Positions 3,102 to 44,132 of a stretch of DNA of 64,000 nt are shown piece by piece; position 1 is the stretch's first letter, and the number at the start of each line of letters is the position of its first letter. Under the pieces are notes generated by a model. The model saw only the letters and a program-made list of their open reading frames with translations, ran no database searches and had not been told where the DNA came from. Location: positions 832,001 to 896,000 of the forward strand of contig CM000431.1 of assembly GCA_000165345.1 (NCBI GenBank), written 5' to 3'. Position numbers and translations under genes: made by a program.

Positions 3102-4477
3102 TTTTATCTAGAACTCAAAGCTATGGGAACAAGAAATGCAAAACAATCAACTGCTTAAAATCGGTGCGTGATTCATATATGATCAATTAGTCAAAATGAC
3201 TCAAACTTTATAGATTAACCGTTCACTATATTTAAACTAATCAGAAATTGGAAAAAACAAAATATATTACACCAACACTTGATTCCACTTACACAAGCCA
3301 AACTTTTTAACAGTTAGAGGAAAATACACTTCACAATTAAGGGTTATAAAGTTATTTTTCCATAAATAGAGAATTTAGAAAGTAATGCTAATAATATCGA
3401 GTAATAGATGATACACTACCCTATTTAAATAAAATACAACAATCTTTTTAATTATCTTCTCATCAAATTTCAAATTGAAACCTTGCCGCCGCCTGTGTGC
3501 GTTTTCTTACCCAATATACGGAAAATTACTTTCAGTATACTTTTTTTTCGGTAATATTGACAAAGCACTTCTTCTTTTGTACAGAACATCAGCACAGTAT
3601 TCTCGGCATTAATTCATTTTATCATTTGCATATATAACTGCTGTATGATTTATGCTTAATAAGTAATGCTATCTATTATCAACATATTAAGCTTTGTATT
3701 TAAGTATGGTTTATTGAATTGTACTTCTCATCTACTTTTCTCTATAATAGCACTCTTTTTCTTACTTGAATTCAGAATTCTGACTTCAAAACAAAGCCAA
3801 ATGATTGTTAAATAAAAAGAAGAAATAATAACAAAGACTGTTATTATTCATCTCTTTAATTAATATTGGTTGTTTTAAAGAGAAATAAGCAATAATTAGC
3901 GTTAACATTTAATTTCATTTTTTTCTTTTTTTGTCTTCATTCACTCTTATTATTTGTGTAATATTTATTATTTGAAGCATAGTATTTAGAATAATTAAGA
4001 TATCTCTTCCAACTTTTAAATTTTTTTCCCCACAGCTCTATACATACCTCTCTAAACAATCTCTACTTATCAAAAAAAAAGGTTAACTCCATATGATTTT
4101 CCAACCCTGAAAACCTTATAATATCACCAAATTATTAACAATGATTTCTTCCCTTTAATCATATTTCTTTTATCTTCTTAATTATATATTTTTGGGAAGG
4201 AAAATATATAATTTTGAAGAAAATTATATAAAAGATGCAATAATTTCCAAATTACATTTCAAGGGAAGTTTTAGTATTTAGTAAAGTATAGGGTGGGCAT
4301 GGGCTATCTGATATGGATAGAGATTTTGTCAATGAATACATCAGGAAAGAATAATAACATTAAATTCTTCAAAAAGCTTTGGCGTACGTAATGGGCGTGG
4401 TAAAAAAAATATATATATATATGAAAAGCTTAGAAATATATATATTCTATTTTGCTTCAACTTAAATATGCTTGCTT

Positions 4478-21977: not shown

Positions 21978-23174
21978 TTACAATATAAAATAGGGGCACT
22001 TATTAGAAATGAACCAATGTTCAAAATCTTCAATAGAAATCATATTATCTGAATCCTTATCCAAATGATCGAATATGATTTCTATTTCACTTTTTGAAAT
22101 ACTGAAAGGGAAATTCAATGACTTTAATCCGTTGAATAGCTCATCCTGGTTGATTTGGCCATTTCCATCTTCATCCAAAGCATTAAAAAAACGGTGGATT
22201 TTTTTAAGCTTATATTCAGGGTCGTGATCTTTGCTTATTTTAATATTTCCCAATTCAGAATGGGAAATTTCATCTCTATTATAAATACCTAGATCTTCTA
22301 AATCCCTGCTCCCGTAATACTTGAGGATATTTAGAATCTTTCTTAGCTTTGAAGCTGCTAATATCCCAAATATAATGTTAAGTATTCCTGTAAGCCCTAC
22401 AAATAGTGACATGAGTGAGAAGTATGTAGATTGAGTTAAATATAGAGAAATGGTGCAGAGCAGAATTTGTATAGATCCTCTTCCAACTGATAGTTCTAGG
22501 AATTTGAACCAAGTGCGAACAAATATCTCTATGTGCTTGATTCGCTTCTTTTTAGATACTTCAATGATTAAAACTACAGAGGATATGGATATAATATATA
22601 GCGAGATGACTATTGCTAGCAAGTTTATTGAGATCAGTCCAAAAATGCAGTTTAGGGTACCCATCAAGAACAGGTTTGCGGTTGCTACCTGAGATAAAAC
22701 CCTGAATGATTTTTGTCCCTTAAAAACCTGATCCCTAAACTCTAAATACTGCTCCAATAGGTCCTGTTTTACTTCTAGAAATGAATTCACCGCTTCTTTC
22801 TTTAAGTTTTGAAAAAGTTCATTATCCGTTTTATCTTGGATATCAATTTTTTGTTCATACCGTTCTTTTTTCAGGAGGTGAGCACTTTCGTCGTTGCTGA
22901 GGTTCCCCTGTCCAGGTTCCCCATTTTCCTTTAAACTAACACTCTCTATCTCCCCGTCACATTTCTTCCCATTTGTATTTCCAAGGTTTACTTTGATTTT
23001 ACTTCCCTTGTCGATATTTCTCGACTTTTCGCTATGATTAGCCTTATTGTTTTCATTTTCCTGATTATTTTCCCTTTCATATTCATCCTCATAAATAACA
23101 ACGGAATCTTTGGAAGATCTGAGCTCCTTTTTGTCGGAATCTGGAGTTTTATGGTCGGGATTGTTTCTTCTCAT
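21978..23174 (-). CDS. Multipass membrane protein with two C-terminal EF-hand Ca2+-binding loops.
   Basis: The track ORF starts at a TTG (23219); the first ATG is 23174..23172 (MRRNNPDHK). Several hydrophobic helices. C-terminal DEDGNGQINQDELFNGL and DKDSDNMISIEDFEHWF are canonical EF-hand loops. Confidence 0.75.
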   Translation of the reverse strand: MRRNNPDHKTPDSDKKELRSSKDSVVIYEDEYERENNQENENNKANHSEKSRNIDKGSKIKVNLGNTNGKKCDGEIESVSLKENGEPGQGNLSNDESAHLLKKERYEQKIDIQDKTDNELFQNLKKEAVNSFLEVKQDLLEQYLEFRDQVFKGQKSFRVLSQVATANLFLMGTLNCIFGLISINLLAIVISLYIISISSVVLIIEVSKKKRIKHIEIFVRTWFKFLELSVGRGSIQILLCTISLYLTQSTYFSLMSLFVGLTGILNIIFGILAASKLRKILNILKYYGSRDLEDLGIYNRDEISHSELGNIKISKDHDPEYKLKKIHRFFNALDEDGNGQINQDELFNGLKSLNFPFSISKSEIEIIFDHLDKDSDNMISIEDFEHWFISNKCPYFIL

Positions 23175-23743: not shown

Positions 23744-26700
23744 TTATTCAACCACTTTTATTAGCTGGAATAGATTTCCCTTCCTCTGTAGTGCACATGT
23801 ACCTGGCTCAATAAAGTCACCTTTGACTGCATTGTGAAGAGTAATACTTGGATCCATAGGCCACCAATTAAATGGCCTTGCATACCATCCTAAAGTATTT
23901 CCAAGAGCTGTAGTTTGGGGAACATCCTCCAATGTTGGAATATGCCAAATCCCAGATGTAACCCAAGTTACTACGTCTCTATGTCGGATAACTTCATCAT
24001 CCATAATGAACGAATCAAATCTGACAGCAGGTTTTGAAGCGAATTTATTATCTCTTGGAAGATCTGCATCAAGTTCTGAGTACTTAAACACGGAAGAAGC
24101 CAAATCATACTTTGACCAAGATGCTGGTCCTGAGTAAAGCTCATGTTCAGGCATCAAGTCTGCAATAGATTTAATAGATTTTATCATAAACCCACCAACA
24201 TTCCCATAAGTTTGTAATTTTTCATCAACAACAAAGTATGCTTTAGGATGATGATGAGTTTCATTCAGCATAGAATAGGCATTTGTTTCTCTTTCTGCTA
24301 TAATTCTCTCCAAAATATGGTGTCCTTCTTTCTCAGGATCTCTCCTTACTTTAACCCAAGCTACAGAATTATCCGTATAGTCTGGTCCAAGATCAAAGTC
24401 GACCTTCCAAACAGCAAAGTGAGAGTGTAAAGCTGCCATTTGTCCAGATGGAGTAATCTGAGTCCCGTATTTCTTTTGTTTAGCAGAGAAATATGGTACT
24501 TCCAGACCTGCATATAGTTCACCTGTAAAGCTGACTCCCATTTCAAATGATCCCTGATTATACAAAATAAGGTCTACAATGTAATCGTAGTTGGAGACTG
24601 TAATAATTTGCCTGATAACTAGACTAGTAAGGGGTGCAGCATCTTTAATACCTCCAGATTTCCAATGGGATCTAATTGGTCTTCCAGTATCTAACTCGAA
24701 GATACAGGCACTGCTATCCCAGAAGATAGTCTGAGCAGTGTTTGCGCATTCAAGACCAGGATGGACTTTTCTTGCTGCTGTACCTAAACCTCCGTACCAA
24801 CTGTCCAAGAAGAACCACTGTCTTTCAAATACGGTATAATGAGCCATTGCGTCCACCATTGCAACTTCAAATGCCACTCTTCTTCCTAAAAATGTTAAAT
24901 TCCATATTTTCAGCCCACTATCACGATCATTTGTGAGAGTTAGCTCCCATCCAATCCAATTGACTGTATAAGCCTCTCTATTAGGGGATTTGAAAACTTG
25001 GAATCTTCTACCTCCAGGTTCACAATGTTCAGGTTTAGCTCTGGATTCCAATCCTCCTCTACTAAACATCTCAAGGAACTGAAGCTTTCTTAGCCTTAGT
25101 TCATTCATATGTTTTTCTCTTTGTATTCTTCTCTCTTGTAGAATATTTGGAGTTACAAGTTTTAAAGGAAGGTTGCTAAATGGAGTACCTGAGCTCTGAC
25201 TTTCTTCAATACTTGCTTTGGCTTCATTGTAAGTACTAACCAAGTCCTGAAGAGTTTTAAAAGAAGTTCCATCATACCAAATCCTATTTACCAACATCTG
25301 ATGCATCCTGTCAAACTCTATCTTTGCGTGGCCATTTCTAATGCTCTCTAATGTTGTATAAGGTGCCTTCAATTCGAAAAATATTGGACACTGATTACCT
25401 TCTTTTGTTTTCAAGCCTATCCATAGCTTTGGCTCTGCATCTTCATCCTCATCTTCTTCATCTACATCTTTTCTTTCCTGTTCTTCCTCATTCTCTGAAG
25501 TAACGTTGTGAGGTTGATAAATTATTGGACCTAATTTGACATAATCCTTTCCAAATACTTGGTCTCTGGGAAGATAATTTCCACAAGTTTCGAATACTAT
25601 CTTATCCAAAGAATTCTGTTCCAAAAGCTCTCCCAATTTAAGCATTGGAATTGAGAATCTTGTTTTTCCTTCATCATTTATTATAATCTGCTCCAGCCTC
25701 CTCCCAAAAGGTCCAGTAGGATTCCAGCCATCACATTCTACTGGTCTTGGCTCAGATATTGGATAATGTTTCATTGCTATAATTTTCTCATCTTCACTTA
25801 CGTTGCTAGTAGTGTTTGAATCTGCGACATTCCATAAGCCGATATTCTCAGTCTCTTTTTTGGTAAGAATAATAGGTCCAACTTTCCACTGATGGTAAAG
25901 ACCATTCAATCCAAGAGGATCAACCATATTTTCAGTTTCATTGCAAGATCCAAACCTAACTCTTGCATATCTCTCTGGAGGGTTTGGCTTTGGGTAAAGC
26001 TCTGGAGTCCTTTTATGTAGATCTAGGGAATCCAAATATTCATAGGCCTCAGTCTTATTCACAAACAATGTGACCCTATAAGGACCTTTTGACCCAACTG
26101 ACTCCTTTACTGAGTCAAAGTAGCTCCTAACTTTCATTTCTTCTAAATATGTCAAAGGATCAAAAGGTGTTTCCATTCCATTTTCTACTTCTGAAGGGTA
26201 TGAAGGGATATCACAAAACTTTCCAAAAGAAGAAATATCCTTTGCTGTTGCCCATATATCTGAGATAGTCATTGTTAGTCCTGTCCTACTCTGAGCCATA
26301 CAATAAATAATATACTTTTGGTTGCCTTCAATTCCATTCAAGATTAGTTGCTTTTCTTCTTTAGGATCACTTACTTCAGTATTTTGGCCATACTTTTCGA
26401 TTTCACTTGGACTTGGATACATACCTTCTGGTAGAGTTGCTACACAAGTTATCTTTCCAGGGGTATCACTCTTTACAACAATATTAAATCTTCCAAGTTC
26501 CGGTACAATCCTCGTGATCTCAATTTTTGGAACTCTATCTTTAGTTGTGACTCTCTTGGTTAAGTTTGCCAACACTTTTTCAAAGCTTATTCTATTTGAT
26601 CTTGGTAATGCTAAATCCTCTGCCAAACAGACTATATCATATTCTGTGGATGGAATTAAATTCCTAATTGATAGTTTAATATCTCCACTAATATCCTTAC

Positions 26701-29053
26701 TGGAGATATTTTTCTCAACTCCACTACTTTTTATAAGTTTTACAAGCCTCTGTTCATCAATATGGTCTTTGTTTGCCAAATCTCTAATTCTTGAAAAGTT
26801 GTTATTATTGTCTGCCATACACCAAATCGTTCCTGATTCATTAATCTTCAAAGTAAGCTCAACACTTTCCTCTAATGTTTTAAATTGCTTTATTTCAAGT
26901 TCTGGACTCTTTGAATCAGTAGTTACTCTTATTCTTGAGTATTCAACAGAAAGATCATCCACACTAGAAACAGAGTCAGTATTTCCCTTATTCTTAATGA
27001 TTCTACTAACTTCCTCAGAGAAGCAGAAGAGATCGTACTCTGTATTTGGTCTAATTTCACCCTTAGAAAATGATGAAATAACAAATGTATGACTCTCCTT
27101 TATATTTAAAGATTTCGGGGCTCTTTGTCCATATTTCTTAAGAACTGATACTGTTGGTGTAATAGCTCCTGCTCTGGTAATTCCACACCAAACATCCACT
27201 CCCTCTCTGTTGGACTTTATTGTAGCTCTAATTGTTTTTTCATCTGCTTCAACCTTTTCTATCTGTATTGAACCAATACTTAATTCAGTCTTAAGGCTAG
27301 ATCCTTGCTTGAATCCTTCTCCAACTTTAATCACTTCATCAAAGAACCTGAATTCCAAGTAGCTTCCACTATTCCATCCATCTCCGTAAGAATCATGCAA
27401 GCTTACAGTGTAGTTTCCATATCCTGGTAGACAGCATGGAATCCAGTCAGTACTTGAAACAAGGTCAGAATTTACATTAATATTATTGAAAGAGTAGGTT
27501 CTTCCACTACATCCCAAAGCTCCCTCTACTTCCCAAGACTTCTCAGTTGTGAAGTTACTACTTACAAGCCTTACTTCTCCCCATACACATCTTTGGTCCT
27601 CTCTCTCACTAGATCTCATTACCTCATTTGAGCAATGCCCTGATTTTACAATAATATCATCCAAAGCAATCAAGCTATCCTCAGAACGTCCACCAACTCC
27701 CTCAATAATCATTCTCAAGGGAGTTATACCGTCAGAATAGAATTCAAACCCCCCAAATTGCCATGATGGACCCTGCTGCCCTACAACAAGCCAGTTTGGA
27801 CGTCCATAATGCAATGTAGGTTTTGGGATTTTGTTTTCCAGACGATTTCCTTTACCATCAAGTTGAACTGAGTTCAAAAGACCTGATGCCATATACATCC
27901 TTAACACATTTACATCAGCTCCTGCCATGAAATATCTTAAAGTTAGACAATGACTACCAAAGCTATATACCCTTGGATTTCCTATTAATACTGCTGAAGC
28001 TCCTGGCATATATCCTGGTGCTCTAAAGAAAATATAGTGCCCTTCTCCCTTCACTCCTGTAGTTGTATCACTTTCTGGTCTCGACCCAACTATAGTTTCC
28101 TCACCAACTCCAAGTTCAAATCTTGTCTTTGTTTGGTAGTCTAAAAGAGAGCTGAATCCACAACCAAGGTAACCTTGGAGCTCAAAATCACAATTAAATG
28201 ATGAGTTTTCTTTGGTATTTAATAAACCAGCTGAATAAATATGTAATTTTGGGCTCATGGTATCCTTGAATGCTCTACTTCTTGCAGGAGAATAACAAAT
28301 TGTAAAACTATCAGCATCATCTTTAATCCCATTTATACTGAAGATTACTGTCGCCTGCCTAGCAGCAGATTTTTGCATATTATCACCAATAACAAGCTCT
28401 GAAGTCTCGTATGATCTTACTCCTTTAAACGGTCCCAAGCCAATTTTATTTGGTGGACATTTTCTTAGAATATCACTAAGTAGTAAGTTCTTTTGCTTAA
28501 TAGTCTTCTCTGGAGAATAATTTTCATTTTTTAGTAGGTAAATTGAATCATCTTGTGTTAGACCTACTCCAGATATAGCAACTATACAATTTGATCTTTT
28601 AATACAAAAGTATTCTTGAACAATTGGAGAGATTTCTACAATTGAGTTAGAAGGTCCAGATACTGCCTCATCCTCAGCCCCACTTTGTAACATATAGCCT
28701 CTATTCCCTTCTTCTGGACAGGAGGAGGCACCATCTATAATTTCTGTGGGATTTGGAGAATCTTGGGTATACAAATACAAAACACATCCTTTTTCGGATT
28801 TTTTGTCAGAGCTTACTGCCTTTTCTGGATTGTTAGATTTTTCCTGTAAAGATCTTAGCGAAGGTCTGCCTTTAGATTGTTCTTGTCTTTCTGGAAATAA
28901 TAGCTCTTCAATAGCTGAAGGTTCATTCATACTTGGAAGAATTCCCGCATTTCTAGTTAGTGGATTTGAAGCATCAGCTTCATTTATTTGACTACAGATT
29001 AGTTCAGATAAACTGAAAAAAGTCAGAAGCAAGAACTTTAACCAATGAAGCAT
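23744..29053 (-). CDS. Secreted multidomain protein (1769 aa): signal peptide, MAM domain, a Cys-containing GDGW module, three ~90-aa Ig/FN3-like repeats, and a C-terminal copper amine oxidase catalytic domain.
   Basis: Signal peptide MLHWLKFLLLTFFSLSELICS. MAM-like block FNCDFELQGYLGCGF...GHYIFF...IALDDIIVKSGHC at about 27640..28200. CAO TPQ consensus TVSNYDYIVD (NYDY at 24581..24592), copper ligands HSH and GIWHIPTLEDVP. Three repeats each end in ..TEYD..C.(A/S)E. Confidence 0.9.
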   Translation of the reverse strand: MLHWLKFLLLTFFSLSELICSQINEADASNPLTRNAGILPSMNEPSAIEELLFPERQEQSKGRPSLRSLQEKSNNPEKAVSSDKKSEKGCVLYLYTQDSPNPTEIIDGASSCPEEGNRGYMLQSGAEDEAVSGPSNSIVEISPIVQEYFCIKRSNCIVAISGVGLTQDDSIYLLKNENYSPEKTIKQKNLLLSDILRKCPPNKIGLGPFKGVRSYETSELVIGDNMQKSAARQATVIFSINGIKDDADSFTICYSPARSRAFKDTMSPKLHIYSAGLLNTKENSSFNCDFELQGYLGCGFSSLLDYQTKTRFELGVGEETIVGSRPESDTTTGVKGEGHYIFFRAPGYMPGASAVLIGNPRVYSFGSHCLTLRYFMAGADVNVLRMYMASGLLNSVQLDGKGNRLENKIPKPTLHYGRPNWLVVGQQGPSWQFGGFEFYSDGITPLRMIIEGVGGRSEDSLIALDDIIVKSGHCSNEVMRSSEREDQRCVWGEVRLVSSNFTTEKSWEVEGALGCSGRTYSFNNINVNSDLVSSTDWIPCCLPGYGNYTVSLHDSYGDGWNSGSYLEFRFFDEVIKVGEGFKQGSSLKTELSIGSIQIEKVEADEKTIRATIKSNREGVDVWCGITRAGAITPTVSVLKKYGQRAPKSLNIKESHTFVISSFSKGEIRPNTEYDLFCFSEEVSRIIKNKGNTDSVSSVDDLSVEYSRIRVTTDSKSPELEIKQFKTLEESVELTLKINESGTIWCMADNNNNFSRIRDLANKDHIDEQRLVKLIKSSGVEKNISSKDISGDIKLSIRNLIPSTEYDIVCLAEDLALPRSNRISFEKVLANLTKRVTTKDRVPKIEITRIVPELGRFNIVVKSDTPGKITCVATLPEGMYPSPSEIEKYGQNTEVSDPKEEKQLILNGIEGNQKYIIYCMAQSRTGLTMTISDIWATAKDISSFGKFCDIPSYPSEVENGMETPFDPLTYLEEMKVRSYFDSVKESVGSKGPYRVTLFVNKTEAYEYLDSLDLHKRTPELYPKPNPPERYARVRFGSCNETENMVDPLGLNGLYHQWKVGPIILTKKETENIGLWNVADSNTTSNVSEDEKIIAMKHYPISEPRPVECDGWNPTGPFGRRLEQIIINDEGKTRFSIPMLKLGELLEQNSLDKIVFETCGNYLPRDQVFGKDYVKLGPIIYQPHNVTSENEEEQERKDVDEEDEDEDAEPKLWIGLKTKEGNQCPIFFELKAPYTTLESIRNGHAKIEFDRMHQMLVNRIWYDGTSFKTLQDLVSTYNEAKASIEESQSSGTPFSNLPLKLVTPNILQERRIQREKHMNELRLRKLQFLEMFSRGGLESRAKPEHCEPGGRRFQVFKSPNREAYTVNWIGWELTLTNDRDSGLKIWNLTFLGRRVAFEVAMVDAMAHYTVFERQWFFLDSWYGGLGTAARKVHPGLECANTAQTIFWDSSACIFELDTGRPIRSHWKSGGIKDAAPLTSLVIRQIITVSNYDYIVDLILYNQGSFEMGVSFTGELYAGLEVPYFSAKQKKYGTQITPSGQMAALHSHFAVWKVDFDLGPDYTDNSVAWVKVRRDPEKEGHHILERIIAERETNAYSMLNETHHHPKAYFVVDEKLQTYGNVGGFMIKSIKSIADLMPEHELYSGPASWSKYDLASSVFKYSELDADLPRDNKFASKPAVRFDSFIMDDEVIRHRDVVTWVTSGIWHIPTLEDVPQTTALGNTLGWYARPFNWWPMDPSITLHNAVKGDFIEPGTCALQRKGNLFQLIKVVE

Positions 29054-29730: not shown

Positions 29731-31782
29731 TTAAGAATCTGAATCTTGAGACTCACAGGAATTATCCTCATGATTAGCATAGTTTTCACTAGATTGATTA
29801 TCTGAATTACCTGGTTTATATGCCTTCTGAGTGATTGCCCAAGAGGCCTGTTTAAGCTCTTCCAGTTGTGATTTAATACTCTGAATAGCGGATTCATAGT
29901 CTGAAGACTGGGTAGATTCTTGTAAAATAGATTGTAATTTAGAAATCTTGGATTCCAAGCTATCTTTTTCTTGGGTATTGATTTGGTCAGCTAGAGAAGA
30001 AATTTGATTTTGTACAGAGTAGATAAAGGCTTCTGCATCATTCTTGAGATCAATAAGCTCTTTTTTAGCTTGATCATTTGCTCTGTATTCTTCAGCTTCT
30101 CTGATCATTTTCTCAATTTCAGCACCACTTAGACCTCCAGAAGATTGAATAGTGATCTCGTGTTTCTTTCCAGTTGACTTATCAATTGCACCAACATTCA
30201 TAATTCCATTTGCATCAATATCAAAGGTGACTTCAATTTGAGGTACCCCTCTGGGTGCTGGAGGAATTCCCATCATTTCAAATTGTCCAAGCAACTTATT
30301 ATCAGCAGCAAATTCTCTTTCTCCTTGGAAAACTTTAATTCCAACTTGAGTTTGATTGTCTGCAGCAGTGGAGAATACTTGGCTCTTTTTAGTAGGTATT
30401 GTGGTATTTCTGTTAATTAATCGAGTAAAAACTCCACCCAAAGTTTCAATACCTAAAGATAAGGGTGTAACGTCGAGTAACAAAAGATCCTTGATCTCCC
30501 CTTTCAAAACACCAGCTTGTATAGCAGCTCCCATTGCAACAGCTTCGTCAGGGTTAACTCCTTTTGATGGCTCTCTTCCAAAGATCTTTTTAACTGTTTC
30601 AGAAACTTTAGGCATTCTAGTCATTCCTCCGACTAAAATAACGTCATTAATCTTTTCCTTAGGGATACCAGAGTCACGAATACATTTCTCACTAGGAGAA
30701 ATAGTCTTTTTCAATAAATCGTCAACAAGTTCTTCATATTTGGCTCTACTTAGTTTGATTTGTAGATGTTTAGGACCTCTTGCATCAGCAGTAATGAAAG
30801 GAAGATTAATTTCAACTTGAGTCTTACTACTCAGCTCTTTTTTTGCAGTTTCTGAGGCTTCCCTTAACCTCTGTAATGCAAGCTTATCACGACTTAAATC
30901 TATTCCTTGCGTTTTCTTGAATTCCTGAATTAAATAATTCAAAATTCGTTGATCAAAGTCTTCTCCTCCTAGGGAAGTGTTACCATTAGTTGCTTTAACT
31001 TCAAACACTCCGCCAAGAATCTCTAAAATAGAAATATCGAAAGTACCTCCTCCCAAATCATAAACTGCGATTGTTTTGCCATCTGCTTTTTCCATTCCGT
31101 ATGCAAGAGCCGCTGCTGTTGGCTCATTAATGATTCTTGTTACATTTAAGCCTGCTATAGAGCCAGCATCCTTAGTTGCTTGACGCTGAGAATCATTAAA
31201 GTAAGCTGGCACAGTAATAACAGCATGCTTTACACCTCTACCAAGATAAGTTTCGGCAGTTTCTTTCATTTTTTCCAAAATAAATGCTCCAATTTGACTT
31301 GGACTATATCTTTCACCTCTAGCTTCAACCCAAGCATCCCCATTATCAGCCCTGACAATCTTATATGGTAAAATTCCCTGTTCCTTCTTGATTGCTTCTT
31401 CTTCGTACCTTCTTCCAATTAGCCTCTTTGTTGCGTAAACAGTGTTTTCTGGGTTTGTGATTGCTTGTCTTTTTGCAACTTCACCAACCAATCTCTGCCC
31501 ATCTTCAGAAAAAGCCACAACAGATGGAGTTGTTCGCATTCCTTCAGAATTTTCTAATACTTTGGGTTGAGTACCTTCTAATATGGCAGTACAAGAATTT
31601 GTAGTTCCTAAATCAATTCCTATAATGTCACCAGTAATTCTCCTATTTGAAGACTTTTTGCCTTCACATTTTGAGCTCATATACCTTGAAAACACTAACG
31701 GAAGGCTCCTTTTAAGTATTCTAGCTGCAATACCAGACGAATTCACCACCCCATTAAAGCTACTATTAATTATCATAGACAT
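29731..31782 (-). CDS. mtHSP70: Mitochondrial-type (DnaK-class) HSP70 with an N-terminal organellar presequence (683 aa).
   Basis: [36 protein letters not shown] and IDANGIM.V are DnaK/mtHSP70-class signatures (GIDLGTTNS rather than cytosolic ...TYS). About 50 aa of basic/Ser-rich N-terminus precede the ATPase domain. Confidence 0.95.
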
Positions 31783-35618: not shown

Positions 35619-36404
35619 ATGTTTGAAGCTAGATTACAGAATGCCATGCTATTTAAAAAGATAGCAGAAGCTCTTAAAGAGCTTTGCCATGATATTAACA
35701 TAGATTGTGATAGCGATGGGCTACATCTTCAAGCCATGGACTCTTCTCATGTTGCTTTAGTATCATTGAATATCCAACCAGATGCATTTGAACATTATAG
35801 ATGTGATAGACCAGTAGTTCTTGGTTTGGATATGCAACAACTCTCTAAATTTATGAAATTCTGCGATAAAGATACTAGTATGACTCTTAAAAAATATGAT
35901 GATAATGAAGATAATAGAATTACTATGTGTTTTGAAGATAATAGTGGAATTCTCTCGTCAAAAGAATGTACTTTAAGGCTAATGGATATTGAACAAGAAC
36001 ATATTTCAATCCCGGAAGAGGAATACGAATGTAATGTTACAATGCCTTCAAATTTATTTCAGTCAATTGTTAGAGATATGTCAGGTATTGGAGATGAAGT
36101 TAGTCTTGAAATTAGTGGAAAGAATATCAAATTTTGCGTGGATGGTGATGATGGAAAAATTGATCTTAATTTTCCTCTTAATGATAGCCCTGATATAACT
36201 AAAGCAGTACAAATTCATGCTGATGATACAATTTCCCAAAAATATGCCCTTAGATACCTCTCATACTTTACAAAAGCATCTCCTTTAAGCACTACTGTCA
36301 ATATTAGTATTTCAAAAGGAGTACCACTTAGATTACAATTTCCACTTAATGACAAATATGAACATGGAAACATGCAATTTTACCTTGCTCCTAAACTAAG
36401 ATGA
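35619..36404 (+). CDS. PCNA: Proliferating cell nuclear antigen (261 aa).
   Basis: MFEARL..A..FKKI.EA.KEL....N.DC...G...QAMDSSHVALVSL...F..Y.CDR...LG..M...SK, then LAPK at the C-terminus: full-length PCNA pattern. Perfect palindrome TTTGGCGCCAAA (E2F-like) 165 bp upstream. Confidence 0.95.
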   Translation: MFEARLQNAMLFKKIAEALKELCHDINIDCDSDGLHLQAMDSSHVALVSLNIQPDAFEHYRCDRPVVLGLDMQQLSKFMKFCDKDTSMTLKKYDDNEDNRITMCFEDNSGILSSKECTLRLMDIEQEHISIPEEEYECNVTMPSNLFQSIVRDMSGIGDEVSLEISGKNIKFCVDGDDGKIDLNFPLNDSPDITKAVQIHADDTISQKYALRYLSYFTKASPLSTTVNISISKGVPLRLQFPLNDKYEHGNMQFYLAPKLR

Positions 36405-39400
36405 AGAATAATCATTTATCATTGGTAAAATTTGTTCTTCTGAAGGCAAAGATAAAATTAAAGATGATGGTGATAAAGGTAATGGTGATGGCGATGGTGA
36501 TGATAAGGAAGAAGATTTAATTGTGTCTTTCTCCTTTCTTGCAAATTCAATTAGAATATCTCTAGATAATATTCGTAGATTTTGATCTTCCAATAGAGTT
36601 ATATCCAATAATACCTTATAAAAACGAGAACTTTTCATTATATATTCAGATTGTTTCATTTCTTTAAGATCACTTAATAAACTATTCAAAACTGCTTTAT
36701 ATGAATAGGTAATATCTACTTTATTCTTGAGAATACGATCATAGCTTGAATTAAAATGATGGTTAAAATGTATATTTGGACTAATTATACTACTTAATCT
36801 CTTCTTTTCATAATAATCATCAGAATGAAGACCTTTTTCTCTTCTTTCCAATGTATTATTTTTGCTTTTCTCAATCTTTACATATTTCTCCAATATATCT
36901 TCACATTGAGAAAGTAATTCATTCTTATAGTATTGTAAATTATCTTTAAATTGTAGTGAAAATTCCTTTCTAACATGTAATTGAATCCATAATACCAAAT
37001 AAATATTATATTGAAACAGATCAAACTTAACTAAATTTAATCCATTTAATAATTCAAAATATAATTTATTTAATGAATTTATTATTGTATCATAAATCAT
37101 TTTATTAATCCCCATATCCAGCTCTCTTTCTATTGATCTCAAATCTATCATATACCAATCAAATAATATGTTATATATTACTAATAAAGCAGAATATAAA
37201 TCATGAACACAATCTGGTCTATTAATTGTAATCATTGTCTTTTCTTCATCATAATTTGATTTATACTTTATATCTTTAAATATTAGCTCTTCTATACTTA
37301 ATCTTAATCTTATAAAAGAATCATACATTTCTTGATCATTAGTATTCTTAATGTTTTTATGAGAATAGCATTTCCAATTCTTTTCTAAACAATGTTTTAA
37401 TGAAATTCTTCTTCCTTTATTTTTATATTTACCAATCTTATTCGGATCTATCCCATTTTGGTCATTTTTATGATTCTTCTTATTTTCTATTAACCCAAAA
37501 TATCTCTTATTGAAAAATTTTGATCTAAAAAATATCTCAAATTGATTATGTTGTCTTCTTTTACGAGTATCAACTATCTCATCATCTTTTGATTTCTTCT
37601 TCTCATTGATCTGATTTTCAAATTCTCTTTCACCATAAGCAACACCCAAATCATCAATAGAATATCTACTTCTTACATCTTCTATTATATATTTATTAGG
37701 ATCAATTTGTATAGATTTTGTAAATTCTCCCACAAAATTTGAATAATATTGAAAAATTTGATGCCATTCTTTGTATCCAAATAAACTCTTATTATTATAT
37801 AAAAAATTTATATAAACTATCAACATCTTATATTGAATCTTTATATCATCTTTGCAAAATATACTCATTGTTTGAGATAATAAAATTTGATTTGTTAAAA
37901 TTAACCAATCTTTTAAAAGAAATCTATAATATTTAATACTTGTTCTAAATATATAAAATTCAATAATTTTATATACATTATGTATTATCTTTATAGCTTT
38001 TAAATCTCCATACTCTTTATCTATTTTAATATTATTGATATCATCATAATTTAAATTCTCTAAAATTTCATCAGAAATTAAATGATCTTTATCTTCTGTC
38101 TTATTTGTTAAAACTCTATTAATTTCTTTAAATTTTTTATTAAATATTGTCAAGTTATTTTTATAATTTGTTTTCATCTTAAGATCTTCTTTGCTACTTA
38201 AAGTTAATTGTGTATTATCCAAATGAGAATTCTTATTTGTAACTTCAAATGTACTTTTTTCATTTCTTGTTGAATTATAGCTTATATAACGTATTATATC
38301 CAAATCTGCCTCATCATTAACAAAACAATTATCTTCATCATCATCATCATCATCGTTCTCAAAATCATTTTCATCATGATATTCCTCAGTTCCTGAATCA
38401 TCTTCTAAACGATTATTCTTGATCATTGATTCTTCTTCAAGTAATAATGATGTCTCATGATTTTTTTCTTCAGTTGTTAATTTATCCAAAAATTTTACTC
38501 CTTTTGTTTTCATATAATCTGCTGTTAAACTTATATTTGTTTGATTTATAATATTCTTTTTATTATTAAAAGAAATTAAGTTTATAATATCAGGAATAAT
38601 ATTCTGAATTAAAAATACTTCATGGATTATTAACTCAATAGGACAAATTCCTAACCAATAATTAATTAATTTTGAAATATTTACTAAATAATAATAATAT
38701 AAATCCAAATACTTCTTTTCAAAAATTAGACTCTTTGTAATAAGTTGAGAGAATTCATTAAAGTAGCACAAAATTAATTTATATTGATTCTTATTATATA
38801 CATTTTTTCTTATGTTATTAGTCTTTCTAATATTTAATAATTGTAAACCATTTATATTATCTTCATCTAAATTCTGTATTTCTTCAATATCTTGATTATT
38901 AATATACTTAATTTTGATATAAAACATATATAATATGTAATCTAAGATCTTACAAATTAATTTACTTACATTTTTTTGAACAAAGACTTTAATTAGTATA
39001 AAAAAAGTATCCAGTAATTTGGAAAATATATCATCATCCAAAATAAATGATAATCTTGGTATAGTTGTCAAACATAATAAAATTCTGGCTAAAATCTCAT
39101 TCTCCTTATCTTTGTTTAACTCTTCTTTATTTGAGTGTGAGTTTGAATTCAATATATTGATTAGTTTCTTCTTCTTACTGTTATGATGATTATTAATATT
39201 TTTTTCTTCAGTTTTTTCTATTCCTTTTTGGATTCCTATAATAAAACAATAGTAAATCTCAATAATATCATTTACATCTAAAAAGTTTAAAAGCTTCAAA
39301 TTTTGATATAAATTTTGTATATTCTTTAAGATTTCAAGTAAAAGTTCAACTGTAACAATGTACTCATTATATGATTCATAGTTAATAATTTTCTCAACCA

Positions 39401-42400
39401 ACTTTTTAAAAAGAATAAATATGGATAATTGAGTCAAATTTAACTCTTTTGAATGGAAATACTTAAAATTTGTACTTAATTGATTGCTTGATTTTTCCAA
39501 AATAAAATCTAATGATGAGGAAATAATAATCATTTTAATTTCTTCAGGATAATTATTAACCTTATTTTCATCCTTAATATTATTCAAATATTTTGATCTT
39601 ATAAACATATCTTGGGATTCAATAAATTTGATAGTAAAACTCTTTATTGAATCCAAAACTTCTAAGTATGCTTTTCCACTCAAAATCTGAATTATCTCAG
39701 AGTAATATATTGGAATAAAATACTTATCCCAAAGAATTAATTCAAAAAATTCTTGAAAATTATATTCAAGAATTAAATTCATAAATTCAAAAACTTTTCG
39801 GAATAGAAATAACTCAATAGATTTTCTTCCTGATAATACAATTTGGTTTCTAGCATTAAATATTAATGCTAAAAATAAGTCTGTAATCACTCTCTTATTT
39901 TTTATCGGATCCATTGCAATTCTTGTGAATATTCTTTCCATTACTTGGTAAAATTCTAATTCGTTTGTGATTAATTTAGAGTTAAACATTTCTGTTCTTC
40001 TTAAGTTAATTAACGATACTTGATTCAGAATTAAAGAATATTTTTCGTCATTTATTATAAGCATCTCGCCATTGTTTTCAACGGTTGAATTTTGTTCGAT
40101 AATTTCTTCATCTTTAAACCATAAATTATTAAAAGAAATGGAATTTTTTAGATTGGTATATATTTGAATATTTTGACTATTTGAGCCATATATTATTTTG
40201 TTTTGGAAATATGTATTCGAACTAATGATCTCATTTTCATCTTTGGATTGAATTATTTCAGTATCCTTATTAGAATAGTCTGGAGAAGTTTCTCTAGAAC
40301 TTGAAGCTCTAGAAATACTTCTGGAATTATCTCGTGAATTATTATTAGAAAGTCCAGAATTAATAATACTTTTGGTAGAATTAAAGATATTTTTTGTAGA
40401 CTTGATTAATTTTCTATTGAAAAATTGATTAAAATGACGGCTATTCAAAGTATTTGACTTGGTTAAGTTTAAAGAAATTTTACTCAAAGTTAGAAATTTG
40501 GTCAAATCATTACCAAAAGCCTTACTTTTATTATTAATGAATTTATTATGATCAAAATAATCAGAAATATCTGTATTATTGCCTTTTAGTATGGTTTTAA
40601 CATAAAAGTATCTGTCAACTTGAGATACAATTCCAATCATGATTACCCATAAAATAAAAGGTACTTGATCTCCATAATCTTGGCTAATTTCAAAAATAGC
40701 TTTGATTGCTTCAATATTTAAATAATTAAGACTAGAATGTGTTGAAAAAGATTCATTAGAGATCAAATAACTCAAAAGTACCTCGGATTCTTGATTTGTA
40801 GAGTGAGCAAATGAATGAGATATAGACTTTTCATTTTCATCTTTTACTTTACATTCTTGTTTAGATTCAAAGCTATTGTAGAAATTCATACTAGTCTGAA
40901 AGCTTCTAATAATTAAATCTGAGTATTGTTCAAGTATACCACTTTTCTCTAATTCTGGAAATTTTAATGATTTTGAGTATTTTTCATCCTCAAAGCTGTG
41001 ATGATCATTTTTTAAAATAACCCTAATTTCCTCAGTTATATTAGAATTACAAAAGAATAAATCATTAAGATTGAGAGGTAATGTTAATGTATTAGTCAAA
41101 TAAGATAAAACTGTTAAATTGATCGTAAAAGACGATTCTAATCCAAGTATTATTCCTAGTTCTGTTGAATATTTTAGAATGGGTATCCAACTTATCATAG
41201 TTTCTTTTCCAAAACACATCCAAAAATCAACATTTGATAGCATTGTAGTAAAATAGCAACATATCATTTTTCCCAATAATATTATGTAGCTTTCTTCTAT
41301 TTCAATACGTTTTTGATTCATGGATTCAGTTCTTTTATATTTTCTGTTACTCCAATTTGGATGCATTTCTTTAATTAAATCAGAAATAGTAATTTGAAAA
41401 ATACTATTAATATCTCTAACTTTAATATCACTATTCTTATTATTTGTAATCCATTTTGATAAATTTTGGTTATTTCCAATTACACTGGAAGTTTGAAGAA
41501 TATTATTGCTATGGACTACTTTTGTATTTTTATTAAAACTTAATCCATCATATTGGAAATAAATACTTTCTTGTTGTATCTCACTTTTAATTGGTAGGTT
41601 TCTGCCTTTTAAACACTCACTCAAGCCAATAATCCATTGAATAGGAGTATTTGGAATAAATTTCCAGTAAACAATATCCTCTGAATAGATACCATTGAAG
41701 TAGATGGTTTCGAATTTCTTTTTAATTGATTGATATATAAACTTGAAAAGATCTTTTTGATTGGCAATGATTTCTGGATCAGTCTGAAAGCTGAGTAGAT
41801 TAGCGATCTTGTGAATTATTTCATTACTAATTATTTTAATTTGGAAATTGGAACTATAAGAAGAACTTGAATTGTAATAACAAGCATTTTTGCTATTATT
41901 AGTTAAACAAGTATTGGTAAATTCCAGATTTTGAATTAAATTAATAAGGTAATCAATATAAGGAAAGTAAACTTTGCATCTTTCCTTTGAATTTTCAAAA
42001 ATCCATTCATTCAAAGTAATATTATCATAAAATGCCTCAAGAGAGTCAACAAGTTTTGGAGATGATAATATTAAATCATTATGATTTTTGATAAAATCAC
42101 TTTTTGACATTCTATAATAATTTTTGATTTCTTTACTATGAGCATCAGTATGAAGCATGATTAGAGAGAAAGCAATGATGTAAATCTTGTCTTTATTTGG
42201 AAAGATTTCAGGATTATCCAAGAAATATCTGAGGGAAAATTCTTCAATAATTCTGTCTATTTTCTGGGCTTCTCCAGGAAGATGAAAGTTGGAAAGAAAC
42301 AAATATAAAGAGAAATCCAAGCTTTTATTTTTGAATGAAAACTGATTACAATAATGATTTAGTATTTCTTTGTTTCTTGGATTTGGAAGAGAAATATAGT

Positions 42401-44132
42401 CACCAATAGCTTTTTTATTTATTGCTCTATTTTGAGCAAGAAATCTTGCAATAGAAATACAGTTTTCCTTATCAATAACTTCGATTTCAGAGAGTAAATC
42501 AATACCCTTTTCATAGTTACCTTCATTAAAATTTTTAATATACTCATCAATCAAATATTTCCTTATGGGAGCGGTATTAAGATCGAATTCAATATGACTA
42601 AAACTATTTAATTTGTGAATTCTTTTCAATTCTTCTTTAATATTAATAATTAGATTAGTTATTAAGGTAAATATATCAATATTTAGGCTCTTGTTCTGAG
42701 TCTTTATGGATCCTCCCTCCATAATTTGATTAATTAGAAAGTTAATGGTATTTAAAACCAAGTTTTCACTGTTTATATCAAGGTCAAACTCAATAAATAA
42801 ATATGTAAGAAATGAAATATTTTCTGTTAAAGTACCAAAAATGGATTCTATGATAACATTTTTTTCAGAATTTTCGAATATCCCATTTTCGAATAGCCCT
42901 CTAATACACTTTGAAATGAAAATACCATGTAAACGAATAGTTTGGCTTAAATCATGAATTTGAAGAGCATTACTCCATAATTGAATGGAATTTTTCCTGG
43001 CTTGAAAATCATTCAAAACGATGTTTTTAATAATCGAAAAGAAGTGGAGCTTATATAGTCGTCTTACATAGTCTCCAAAATTAGTGTTTTGGTACTCTCT
43101 CAATTTAATCTTTGCATAGATTGCGTGTAGCATCTCTAGGCTAAGATTTCTAATCCTCAATATCCTAGGATCCAATTCCCTAACCTGGGAAAATATAAAA
43201 AAATTATTCTCAACTTCAATAAAATCCTTGGAGGAAAGCTCAAAGTCTAAAGGAGAAATCAATTTGATCTGGTTGAACCTTCCCTTTTGCGTTTCATGCT
43301 TTTTAATGTGAATCATGCTATTTGTCATGGTAAATGTGTAGAGTATTTCTATAATTAATACAAAATATTTTTCAGAATACTCGTTTCTTTTTTCAAATGA
43401 GTCATCAAAAAACAAGCTTACGAAATGTATTAATATAGAATAAGTTGTTGCTCTGATTCCATTATCAATTGTATTACTGTAAATATTAAATAACACTAGA
43501 AAGGTGGAGTAGAGCATTTGGCAGCTAAAACAATCAATATTCTTTCCAATCAAAGGTATACTTGTTTTTATAATTTGAGTTAGAATTGATTCATCATCAA
43601 TCTTTGAATCATATATATTGAACAATAGTGTGAATAAAAACTCTAAACCGTTAACTGGTTCTTTATTTTCTATAATGTCCTCGCAACCATAAAGTTTTTC
43701 TTCTTCAATCAAAGTTCTTGCAAGAGCTTCAAAAGAAAGAAGCTTATTGATTCCCTCCAAGGATATTAATGTAAGCTTCGGATTCGTATATTGTCTACAT
43801 GCTTTAAAAATCGGTCCTAATATATATGGATATAACAGATCCAAATGTTTTCCATATTCATCGAATGATAAGTCCTTAAGTTTTTTCTTATCTGCATAGT
43901 ATATAAGATTCTTTAAATCACTAGTTACTGCTCCACTTAAATAATCTTTCAAATCAAAGTTATTGTCAAATTCTAAAATCAAATCCTGAAATTCTTTTTC
44001 ATTTTGAAGTTGAGTGTACCCAATAAAGAACTTTAACTTGTCAATGCAGTGAGATGCAACAACTTCCAGGTCCTTGTATTTTCTGGATGTGCTTGAAAAT
44101 TTCTGTATTGACTTAATAGTATTTATTATCAT
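36396..44132 (-). CDS. Giant Sec7-domain ARF guanine-nucleotide exchange factor (BIG/GBF-like), 2578 aa, with long low-complexity inserts.
   Basis: Sec7 core FHLPGEAQKIDRIIEEFSLRYF..NP.IF...D..YIIAFSLIMLHTDAHS at about 41990..42560; catalytic Glu codon at 42270..42272. Poly-Asp encoded by an (ATC)n run near 38332..38355. The stop codon overlaps the PCNA 3' end. Confidence 0.9.
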   Translation of the reverse strand: MIINTIKSIQKFSSTSRKYKDLEVVASHCIDKLKFFIGYTQLQNEKEFQDLILEFDNNFDLKDYLSGAVTSDLKNLIYYADKKKLKDLSFDEYGKHLDLLYPYILGPIFKACRQYTNPKLTLISLEGINKLLSFEALARTLIEEEKLYGCEDIIENKEPVNGLEFLFTLLFNIYDSKIDDESILTQIIKTSIPLIGKNIDCFSCQMLYSTFLVLFNIYSNTIDNGIRATTYSILIHFVSLFFDDSFEKRNEYSEKYFVLIIEILYTFTMTNSMIHIKKHETQKGRFNQIKLISPLDFELSSKDFIEVENNFFIFSQVRELDPRILRIRNLSLEMLHAIYAKIKLREYQNTNFGDYVRRLYKLHFFSIIKNIVLNDFQARKNSIQLWSNALQIHDLSQTIRLHGIFISKCIRGLFENGIFENSEKNVIIESIFGTLTENISFLTYLFIEFDLDINSENLVLNTINFLINQIMEGGSIKTQNKSLNIDIFTLITNLIINIKEELKRIHKLNSFSHIEFDLNTAPIRKYLIDEYIKNFNEGNYEKGIDLLSEIEVIDKENCISIARFLAQNRAINKKAIGDYISLPNPRNKEILNHYCNQFSFKNKSLDFSLYLFLSNFHLPGEAQKIDRIIEEFSLRYFLDNPEIFPNKDKIYIIAFSLIMLHTDAHSKEIKNYYRMSKSDFIKNHNDLILSSPKLVDSLEAFYDNITLNEWIFENSKERCKVYFPYIDYLINLIQNLEFTNTCLTNNSKNACYYNSSSSYSSNFQIKIISNEIIHKIANLLSFQTDPEIIANQKDLFKFIYQSIKKKFETIYFNGIYSEDIVYWKFIPNTPIQWIIGLSECLKGRNLPIKSEIQQESIYFQYDGLSFNKNTKVVHSNNILQTSSVIGNNQNLSKWITNNKNSDIKVRDINSIFQITISDLIKEMHPNWSNRKYKRTESMNQKRIEIEESYIILLGKMICCYFTTMLSNVDFWMCFGKETMISWIPILKYSTELGIILGLESSFTINLTVLSYLTNTLTLPLNLNDLFFCNSNITEEIRVILKNDHHSFEDEKYSKSLKFPELEKSGILEQYSDLIIRSFQTSMNFYNSFESKQECKVKDENEKSISHSFAHSTNQESEVLLSYLISNESFSTHSSLNYLNIEAIKAIFEISQDYGDQVPFILWVIMIGIVSQVDRYFYVKTILKGNNTDISDYFDHNKFINNKSKAFGNDLTKFLTLSKISLNLTKSNTLNSRHFNQFFNRKLIKSTKNIFNSTKSIINSGLSNNNSRDNSRSISRASSSRETSPDYSNKDTEIIQSKDENEIISSNTYFQNKIIYGSNSQNIQIYTNLKNSISFNNLWFKDEEIIEQNSTVENNGEMLIINDEKYSLILNQVSLINLRRTEMFNSKLITNELEFYQVMERIFTRIAMDPIKNKRVITDLFLALIFNARNQIVLSGRKSIELFLFRKVFEFMNLILEYNFQEFFELILWDKYFIPIYYSEIIQILSGKAYLEVLDSIKSFTIKFIESQDMFIRSKYLNNIKDENKVNNYPEEIKMIIISSSLDFILEKSSNQLSTNFKYFHSKELNLTQLSIFILFKKLVEKIINYESYNEYIVTVELLLEILKNIQNLYQNLKLLNFLDVNDIIEIYYCFIIGIQKGIEKTEEKNINNHHNSKKKKLINILNSNSHSNKEELNKDKENEILARILLCLTTIPRLSFILDDDIFSKLLDTFFILIKVFVQKNVSKLICKILDYILYMFYIKIKYINNQDIEEIQNLDEDNINGLQLLNIRKTNNIRKNVYNKNQYKLILCYFNEFSQLITKSLIFEKKYLDLYYYYLVNISKLINYWLGICPIELIIHEVFLIQNIIPDIINLISFNNKKNIINQTNISLTADYMKTKGVKFLDKLTTEEKNHETSLLLEEESMIKNNRLEDDSGTEEYHDENDFENDDDDDDEDNCFVNDEADLDIIRYISYNSTRNEKSTFEVTNKNSHLDNTQLTLSSKEDLKMKTNYKNNLTIFNKKFKEINRVLTNKTEDKDHLISDEILENLNYDDINNIKIDKEYGDLKAIKIIHNVYKIIEFYIFRTSIKYYRFLLKDWLILTNQILLSQTMSIFCKDDIKIQYKMLIVYINFLYNNKSLFGYKEWHQIFQYYSNFVGEFTKSIQIDPNKYIIEDVRSRYSIDDLGVAYGEREFENQINEKKKSKDDEIVDTRKRRQHNQFEIFFRSKFFNKRYFGLIENKKNHKNDQNGIDPNKIGKYKNKGRRISLKHCLEKNWKCYSHKNIKNTNDQEMYDSFIRLRLSIEELIFKDIKYKSNYDEEKTMITINRPDCVHDLYSALLVIYNILFDWYMIDLRSIERELDMGINKMIYDTIINSLNKLYFELLNGLNLVKFDLFQYNIYLVLWIQLHVRKEFSLQFKDNLQYYKNELLSQCEDILEKYVKIEKSKNNTLERREKGLHSDDYYEKKRLSSIISPNIHFNHHFNSSYDRILKNKVDITYSYKAVLNSLLSDLKEMKQSEYIMKSSRFYKVLLDITLLEDQNLRILSRDILIEFARKEKDTIKSSSLSSPSPSPLPLSPSSLILSLPSEEQILPMINDYSSS
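38332..38355. repeat. (ATC)n trinucleotide microsatellite encoding a poly-Asp run (DDDDDDED) inside the Sec7 GEF CDS.
   Basis: tcatcatcatcatcatcatcg on the + strand; reads as GAT/GAC codons on the minus strand. Confidence 0.8.

Follow-up and report, generated by a model that had tools for sequence, protein, structure and literature searches.

What does a secreted protein that joins a MAM domain to a copper amine oxidase (CAO) do for Cryptosporidium parvum? The question is raised by a single gene in a stretch of 64,000 nucleotides of chromosome 3 (GenBank assembly GCA_000165345.1, contig CM000431.1, positions 832,001 to 896,000; hereafter the window). The gene lies on the minus strand at 23744..29053 and is, in the program-made list of open reading frames (ORFs), one unbroken ORF of 1769 codons from ATG to stop. 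A first-pass annotation had read its product as a secreted fusion of MAM and copper amine oxidase domains with the full set of cofactor and copper residues, a description borne out by the Pfam matches (E = 2.1e-14 for MAM and 1.2e-55 for the oxidase). It had also called the architecture unusual for an apicomplexan and had proposed horizontal acquisition and a function at the host interface, proposals that the distribution, base composition and expression of the gene do not support. We argue below that the protein probably acts instead in the maturation of the oocyst wall.

The ORF is the annotated gene cgd3_3430 on C. parvum chromosome 3, since its protein is an exact match and the flanking genes agree. 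In the public protein collections, the product is residue-for-residue identical to C. parvum Iowa II EAK88998.1 (UniProt Q5CUC0), whose GenBank name begins 'extracellular protein with a signal peptide sequence, MAM domain and a Cu amine oxidase ...'. The supplement of Tandel et al. 2019 (PMC6877471) lists, in this order, cgd3_3420 (EF-hand/transmembrane), cgd3_3430 ('Amine oxidase') and cgd3_3440 (HSP70), and the same neighbours are found in the window at 21978..23174 and 29731..31782, respectively. By its OrthoMCL group, cgd3_3430 is the putative C. parvum orthologue of coccidian 'amine oxidase 2' (AO2). Annotation and papers have already made public the gene and its domains, as well as its female-specific expression and an oocyst-wall hypothesis.

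cgd3_3430 is transcribed almost exclusively in female gametes. RNA-seq of sorted parasites puts its mean expression at 1.33 log2 counts per million (CPM) for asexual stages, whereas females reach 10.68 in vitro and 11.94 in vivo (Tandel 2019, supplement 4; PMC6877471). The corresponding female vs. asexual log fold change (logFC) of 9.36, or ~650-fold, places it among the strongest female-specific genes, and amine oxidases are counted in the same study among the female genes with a probable oocyst-wall role. This timing is at odds with the sporozoite or merozoite expression, and with the oxidation of polyamines in the gut lumen, that had first been envisaged.

The putative orthologues in coccidia show a comparable pattern. 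According to the Tandel 2019 supplement (PMC6877471), cgd3_3430 and ETH_00028385 (EtAO2) fall into one OrthoMCL group, OG5_127171; the orthology to EtAO2 and TgAO2 is taken from this grouping. Both EtAO2 and TgAO2 (TGME49_286778/286782) belong to OG5_127171, combine MAM with a C-terminal CAO, have predicted masses of ~180-200 kDa and, like cgd3_3430, are specific to the female gamete or macrogamete. EtAO2 is upregulated in gametocytes and found in macrogametes (Walker et al. 2015, PMC4345034), while TgAO2 stains macrogametes and the early oocyst surface (PMC4345034). In addition, the Eimeria necatrix orthologue is present in the proteome of wall-forming bodies and the oocyst wall, and recent studies of Toxoplasma use AO2 to mark macrogametes. 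The cgd3_3430 protein itself was detected in material released at the excystation of oocysts, namely in vesicle preparations from excysted sporozoites. The Cryptosporidium case differs in that the gene is intronless and in that the dityrosine and glucan around which the coccidian hypothesis is built are reported to be absent from the wall.

The oxidase module and the domains upstream

Judged from the protein sequence, all residues needed for the self-processing of Tyr1489 to topaquinone (TPQ) and for catalysis are present. The PF01179 match scores 189.5 bits against a cutoff of 27 and covers model positions 2-407 of 407. The NYDY motif lies at exactly 24581..24592, where it had first been placed, within the full consensus TVSNYDY at 24581..24601. 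The two histidines of the HSH motif (H1543 and H1545), first placed about 55 residues further on, follow 54 residues C-terminal of the TPQ tyrosine, and the third copper ligand, H1704, is found in GIWHIPTLEDVP. Each of these residues, as well as the catalytic base, pairs with its counterpart in human diamine oxidase (hDAO; see Table 1); the pairing was taken from the HMMER alignment, with hDAO residue numbers counted from the chain offset.

The best solved relative is hDAO itself (3HI7; E = 5.5e-42 with the single sequence and 1.6e-71 with the family profile), followed by bovine and human AOC enzymes, an Aspergillus amine oxidase and the Pichia lysyl oxidase, with the plant, E. coli and Arthrobacter enzymes far weaker. 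The pea CAOs (1KSI, 1W2Z), for example, are much more distant (E = 3e-29 by profile and 4e-12 by single sequence) and carry no adhesion modules. Human AOC1 (3HI7), vertebrate AOC2/3 and bovine serum amine oxidase share with AO2 the TPQ motif, the base, the three histidines and the N2/N3/D4 organization. AO2 differs from them by ~950 additional N-terminal residues, comprising the N-terminal domain, MAM, DGW and three FN3-like repeats described below, by N2/N3 domains too diverged for the Pfam models and, relative to hDAO, by a Phe in place of a Tyr two positions before the catalytic base.

The oxidase had been assigned to the C-terminal ~520 residues. The catalytic hallmarks do lie there, but the module is larger, with N2/N3 beginning at about residue 957. 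The Pfam N2/N3 models give no match in residues ~957-1340; when aligned with 88 ordinary CAOs using hhalign, this region matches CAO positions 68-298 with a probability of 99.5% and E = 1.1e-22. The family profile also aligns weakly with the N2 domain of hDAO (residues 10-107), and the Vitrella homologue has a weak DUF1965 match. Because the N2/N3 region aligns with ordinary CAOs, the oxidase module is complete and spans ~810 residues.

Full-length orthologues with 60-97% identity are found in the C. meleagridis cluster, C. canis, C. felis, C. bovis, C. ryanae, C. andersoni and one further relative. D1417, N1488-Y1489-D1490-Y1491, H1543, H1545 and H1704 are invariant across eight Cryptosporidium species, Gregarina, Selenidium, Chromera, Vitrella and one further relative, so that no substitution of the catalytic Tyr or His ligands occurs in any orthologue examined. 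The catalytic domain is also the most conserved module of the protein: its identity between C. parvum and C. andersoni is 86%, as against 47-69% for the other modules, and it retains 48-55% identity with the nearest named relatives aligned (Gregarina, Vitrella and Selenidium).

Two local features of the module are recorded here as side observations. An acidic low-complexity insert, EEEQERKDVDEEDEDEDAE (residues ~1181-1207; 25433..25513, minus strand), lies inside the diverged N3 region, is variable in length among Cryptosporidium species and is absent in C. andersoni. A His triplet in NETHHHPKAYF (residues 1600-1602; 24248..24256, minus strand) is invariant in Cryptosporidium, and other residues take its place in the gregarine-like fragments P0019-P0022; the triplet might form an additional metal site specific to the genus.

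From the N-terminus, the module order is signal peptide, Cys-rich N-terminal domain, MAM, DGW beta domain, three FN3-like repeats and copper amine oxidase (N2, N3 and catalytic). The N-terminal segment MLHWLKFLLLTFFSLSELICS is, by inspection, probably a signal peptide, as had been proposed, and inspection finds no further hydrophobic stretch in the cgd3_3430 protein. Since its only hydrophobic segment is N-terminal, AO2 is predicted to be a soluble secretory protein of ~199 kDa. The N-terminal domain that follows (residues 85-285) has no Pfam match at E<=10; it shows ~22% identity with the chromerid and Selenidium homologues and is largely absent from the Gregarina homologue.

Like the oxidase, the MAM domain is recovered above its Pfam threshold. 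Its four cysteines (C288, C298, C369 and C474) are invariant, and the family profile matches the solved MAM domains of an SR-C-like protein, MDGA1, neuropilin-1, enteropeptidase and meprin (E 1.8e-25 to 1e-10). Directly after MAM comes a Cys-rich domain of ~110 residues, here called DGW after its invariant motif CGE.R...KSW...C.GR.YS...W.PCC.P..G.Y...D...DGW.G. It is kept from chromerids to Cryptosporidium (42-53% identity), has no Pfam match at E<=10 and, in a profile search of the PDB, gives nothing above chance level. It sits where MAM ectodomains of the RPTPmu type have their immunoglobulin (Ig) domain.

Three tandem repeats with a conserved Cys pair in each connect the DGW domain to the oxidase. 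They match one another pairwise in hhalign (probability 98.3-98.7%, E 1e-14 to 1e-16), and Pfam offers nothing useful for this region (residues 596-945) at E<=10. AlphaFold (AF2) models were made from shallow alignments of 8-12 sequences, with a predicted local distance difference test score (pLDDT) of 51 for residues 85-1000 and 38 for residues 940-1769; only the repeat region of the N-terminal model (pLDDT 60-88) was interpreted, and the C-terminal model was left out of the fold search. With Foldseek, the N-terminal model finds its best fold match in the MAM-Ig-FN3 ectodomain of RPTPmu (2V5Y), and it also matches tandem FN3 proteins. On these grounds, the first-pass assignment of three Ig/FN3-like repeats is reasonable. 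Metazoan MAM ectodomains (RPTPmu 2V5Y, MDGA1, neuropilin, meprin) likewise consist of a four-Cys MAM followed by beta-sandwich repeats; they belong to membrane receptors or proteases, whereas AO2 has no transmembrane segment and carries an oxidase at its C-terminal end.

Distribution and origin

Word-indexed protein searches with the full-length protein, the catalytic domain and a catalytic-domain profile reached only Cryptosporidium orthologues and a few fragments; the wider relatives come from an exhaustive HMMER search with the catalytic-domain profile. This search returns a discrete top group, with full-length members of 1450-1740 residues scoring 461-861 bits together with a fragment of 456 residues (P0019), and then, after a gap, ordinary oxidases of 750-800 residues at <=273 bits. 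The named members of the top group are from Gregarina niphandrodes, Selenidium pygospionis, Vitrella brassicaformis and Chromera velia. Each of the four contains MAM and Cu_amine_oxid in Pfam and is colinear with cgd3_3430 through MAM, the DGW domain, three FN3-like repeats, N2/N3 and the CAO. MAM is found by Pfam scan in none of ten of the longest ordinary oxidases (870-1032 residues) among the matches listed.

A colinear AO2 homologue covering cgd3_3430 residues 77-1767 is also present at 1954..6882 (plus strand) on 16.9 kb of a metagenomic contig from Logan SRR11177099 with a GC content of 53% (L001). Since its protein clusters with that of Gregarina niphandrodes in the neighbour-joining tree, the source of this contig is probably a eugregarine. 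On the contig, the gene caller divided the homologue into three ORFs, namely: 834 residues with MAM, 250 residues, and a 450-residue CAO. The homologue is followed by a gene of >3000 residues with C2 and weak cadherin-like matches.

In the neighbour-joining tree, the AO2 clade is monophyletic, and its nearest outgroups are one sequence without a source name and a Chlamydomonas enzyme. Other close relatives are from Capsaspora (a filasterean), limpets, a chytrid, lizard (DAO) and fish (AOC). No one lineage is singled out as a donor, and there is no bacterium among the ~10 nearest relatives that carry a source name (150 relatives are listed, few of them named). The GC content at third codon positions (GC3) of cgd3_3430 is 0.269, within the range of 0.175-0.354 of 15 neighbouring ORFs.

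As gregarines and chromerids share the whole architecture, the fusion of MAM and CAO is ancestral to apicomplexans and chromerids and not unusual for an apicomplexan; the same combination has moreover been published as AO2 in Eimeria and Toxoplasma (PMC4345034). The GC3, which is like that of the neighbours, and the broad phyletic distribution give no sign of a recent transfer, and recent horizontal transfer is rejected on both counts. The tree is a distance tree, and a very ancient transfer, before the split of apicomplexans and chromerids, may have occurred.

A probable role in the oocyst wall

We favour the reading of AO2 as a secreted, matrix-tethered oxidase acting in oocyst-wall maturation and regard it as probable, because of the female timing of its transcript, the macrogamete localization of its orthologues, the staining of the early oocyst for TgAO2, the wall proteome of E. 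necatrix and the detection of the protein at excystation. AO2 would travel through the macrogamont secretory pathway and the wall-forming bodies to the nascent oocyst wall, where the MAM and FN3 modules would anchor it on the wall matrix. There, the copper/TPQ domain would oxidise primary amines with O2 to aldehyde, NH3 and H2O2, acting either on the peptidyl-lysine of wall proteins or on free di-/polyamines, and the aldehydes and/or H2O2 would harden the wall covalently. The localization in Cryptosporidium, the substrate and the cross-linking chemistry are the parts of this scheme that we infer.

Several points weigh against such a role. The EtAO2 antibody left Eimeria oocysts unstained, and the band that it recognized was ~60 kDa below the predicted size (PMC4345034). 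The searched literature contains no report of amine oxidase activity or TPQ formation by the Cryptosporidium protein, and none of its substrate, its knockout or its localization. Both structure models are of low confidence (pLDDT 38 and 51), hence no inference on the substrate channel is drawn from them. Furthermore, the rationale usually given for the coccidian enzyme does not fit. Copper amine oxidases turn primary amines into aldehydes and H2O2 and, with these products, could feed a peroxidase only indirectly. The statement in reviews that AO2 'catalyses dityrosine cross-linking' thus does not directly fit CAO chemistry; nor does it transfer to Cryptosporidium, where dityrosines and beta-1,3-glucan are reported to be absent from the oocyst wall (Bushkin et al. 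2013, PMC3760245).

Because AO2 is highly conserved and female-specific in Cryptosporidium, and because the family is also found in gregarines and free-living chromerids, its conserved function is more likely to be lysyl-oxidase-like aldehyde cross-linking or a general supply of H2O2 than dityrosine formation. The lysyl-oxidase-like option is suggested by the Pichia pastoris lysyl oxidase (1N9E, 1W7C, 1RKY), which belongs to the same CAO subfamily as AO2 (E = 4e-52 with the family profile). This copper/TPQ enzyme was named lysyl oxidase by its depositors for the oxidation of peptidyl-lysine and sets a precedent for protein cross-linking; it has no MAM or FN3 modules and is a weaker match to AO2 than the animal DAO/AOC enzymes. 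Two further female-upregulated genes are leads to candidate partners of AO2, namely: cgd3_460, a glutathione peroxidase (logFC 4.1) that is also in the Eimeria gametocyte set, and cgd3_3740, a 'p-type ATPase 2' (logFC 4.2) that is, by its name, probably the copper ATPase CpATPase2.

In one variant, to which we give roughly one chance in three, AO2 would serve mainly as a generator of H2O2: the oxidation of free di-/polyamines in the parasitophorous vacuole or the wall space would supply a peroxidase or the oxidation of thiols in the Cys-rich COWPs. Plant apoplastic CAOs, which are secreted and deliver H2O2 for the peroxidase-mediated stiffening of the cell wall, offer a functional analogy. The closest solved relative of AO2 is a diamine oxidase, and the female expression of the glutathione peroxidase cgd3_460 is consistent with this chemistry, as is the peroxidase-catalysed dityrosine cross-linking documented in Eimeria walls (reference 9 cited in PMC3760245; PMC4345034). 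The reported lack of dityrosine in Cryptosporidium walls (PMC3760245) argues the other way, no secreted haem peroxidase partner was identified in this analysis, and the large MAM/FN3 tether points to the matrix rather than to a soluble pool.

Far less probable are two explanations that place AO2 outside wall chemistry. That sporozoites or merozoites use a horizontally acquired AO2 to oxidise host or luminal polyamines would suit an extracellular architecture with a diamine-oxidase-like catalytic domain, and the protein is indeed found in vesicle preparations from excysted sporozoites; a component of the oocyst wall or the residual body would, however, also appear in excystation supernatants. 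This idea is contradicted by the timing, with the transcript near-absent in asexual stages, as well as by the macrogamete location of the Eimeria and Toxoplasma proteins (PMC4345034), by the occurrence of the same protein in the host-free chromerids Chromera and Vitrella and by a GC3 typical of the locus, and we consider it very improbable. Since MAM and FN3 are typical adhesion domains and the catalytic activity is predicted from sequence, one might also suppose that the oxidase fold has been retained merely as a structural or adhesive part of the wall. We reject such a pseudo-enzyme, which would be the least likely case of all: no catalytic residue varies between chromerids and Cryptosporidium, and the higher conservation of the catalytic domain than of any other module argues against it.

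The role in oocyst-wall maturation can be extended into a more speculative proposal. As free-living chromerids have AO2, the enzyme could predate parasitism; it might then be an ancestral cyst-wall hardening enzyme whose conserved job would be not dityrosine formation but lysyl-oxidase-like aldehyde cross-linking, or H2O2-driven oxidation, of wall proteins. In Cryptosporidium, such an enzyme would be essential for an oocyst that resists the environment and would be a main reason for the parasite to keep CpATPase2. The small number of copper enzymes in Cryptosporidium would be part of the argument that AO2 explains this retention. We put the whole proposal forward tentatively, as something rather less likely than not to hold.

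Neighbouring genes and wider significance

The features of cgd3_3430 are collected in Table 1. The surroundings of the gene are AT-rich (~30-38% GC). Two antisense ORFs within it (26322..27092 and 28746..28991, both on the plus strand) are regarded as shadow ORFs of a long AT-rich gene.

Table 1. Features of cgd3_3430 with their positions in the protein and in the window
Feature	Residues	Window coordinates	Strand	Remarks
cgd3_3430, complete single-exon coding sequence (C. parvum AO2)	1769 aa + stop	23744..29053	-	ORF list; exact protein match
Putative signal peptide, MLHWLKFLLLTFFSLSELICS	1-~21	28991..29053	-	By inspection; GenBank name includes 'signal peptide'
N-terminal domain, 6 invariant Cys	85-285	28199..28801	-	Cys invariant within the genus
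MAM domain	288-475	27629..28192	-	Pfam PF00629, E = 2.1e-14, 54.1 bits vs. cutoff 26.4
Cys-rich 'DGW' beta domain	486-595	27269..27598	-	~110 residues, directly after MAM
Three tandem FN3/Ig-like repeats	596-712, 713-838, 839-945	26219..27268	-	Conserved Cys pair in each
Diverged N2/N3 domains	~957-1340	25034..26185	-	hhalign vs. 88 ordinary CAOs
Copper amine oxidase catalytic domain (D4)	1342-1737	23843..25030	-	Pfam PF01179, E = 1.2e-55
Catalytic base, in FFLDSWYGG	Asp1417	24803..24805	-	Pairs with hDAO D373
TPQ consensus T-V-S-N-Y-D-Y	from T1485	24581..24601	-	Y1489 predicted TPQ precursor; pairs with hDAO TPQ461
Copper ligands (HSH)	His1543, His1545	24419..24427	-	Pair with hDAO H510/H512
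Third copper ligand, in GIWHIPTLEDVP	His1704	23942..23944	-	Pairs with hDAO H675

The product of the neighbour cgd3_3420 (minus strand) has a pair of EF hands at its C-terminus, together with a membrane region that weakly resembles COPI_assoc. At NCBI, the C. canis AO2 orthologue (P0003) carries the label 'transmembrane domain and EF hand containing protein', which suits cgd3_3420 better than the oxidase. On the other side, cgd3_3440 (minus strand) is an HSP70 with an N-terminal extension, the Pfam HSP70 match starting at residue 53; its expression shows no sex specificity in the Tandel data, and it is probably the mitosomal HSP70. Beyond 31782, cgd3_3450 ('Uncharacterized protein') has a female in vitro logFC of 8.3 and an in vivo vs. 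in vitro logFC of -7.2 (Tandel 2019), an expression pattern different from that of cgd3_3430. Elsewhere in the window, ORFs of 1507 residues (4478..9001, minus strand) and 1115 residues (54403..57750, plus strand) have N-termini resembling signal peptides and no Pfam domain, and may be Cryptosporidium-specific secreted proteins. An ORF of 2578 residues (36396..44132, minus strand) is located in the most AT-rich part of the window (GC 0.25, GC3 0.20).

To what is public about AO2, this analysis adds a complete oxidase module with N2/N3, catalytic residues conserved from chromerids to Cryptosporidium, an architecture of several domains that is ancestral rather than horizontally acquired, and the point that the dityrosine rationale is unfit for Cryptosporidium. 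The substrate of AO2 and its chemistry in a wall without dityrosine are experimentally tractable.

Cryptosporidium is transmitted by oocysts alone, and the main public-health problem that it poses is the resistance of their wall to chlorine. An enzyme that is secreted, specific to females and open to an inhibitor chemistry that is well understood makes a reasonable transmission-blocking target. The identity of its substrate would also show what covalent chemistry binds the Cryptosporidium wall. If the ancestral wall-hardening proposal is true, AO2 could be targeted by known copper amine oxidase inhibitors to stop transmission.

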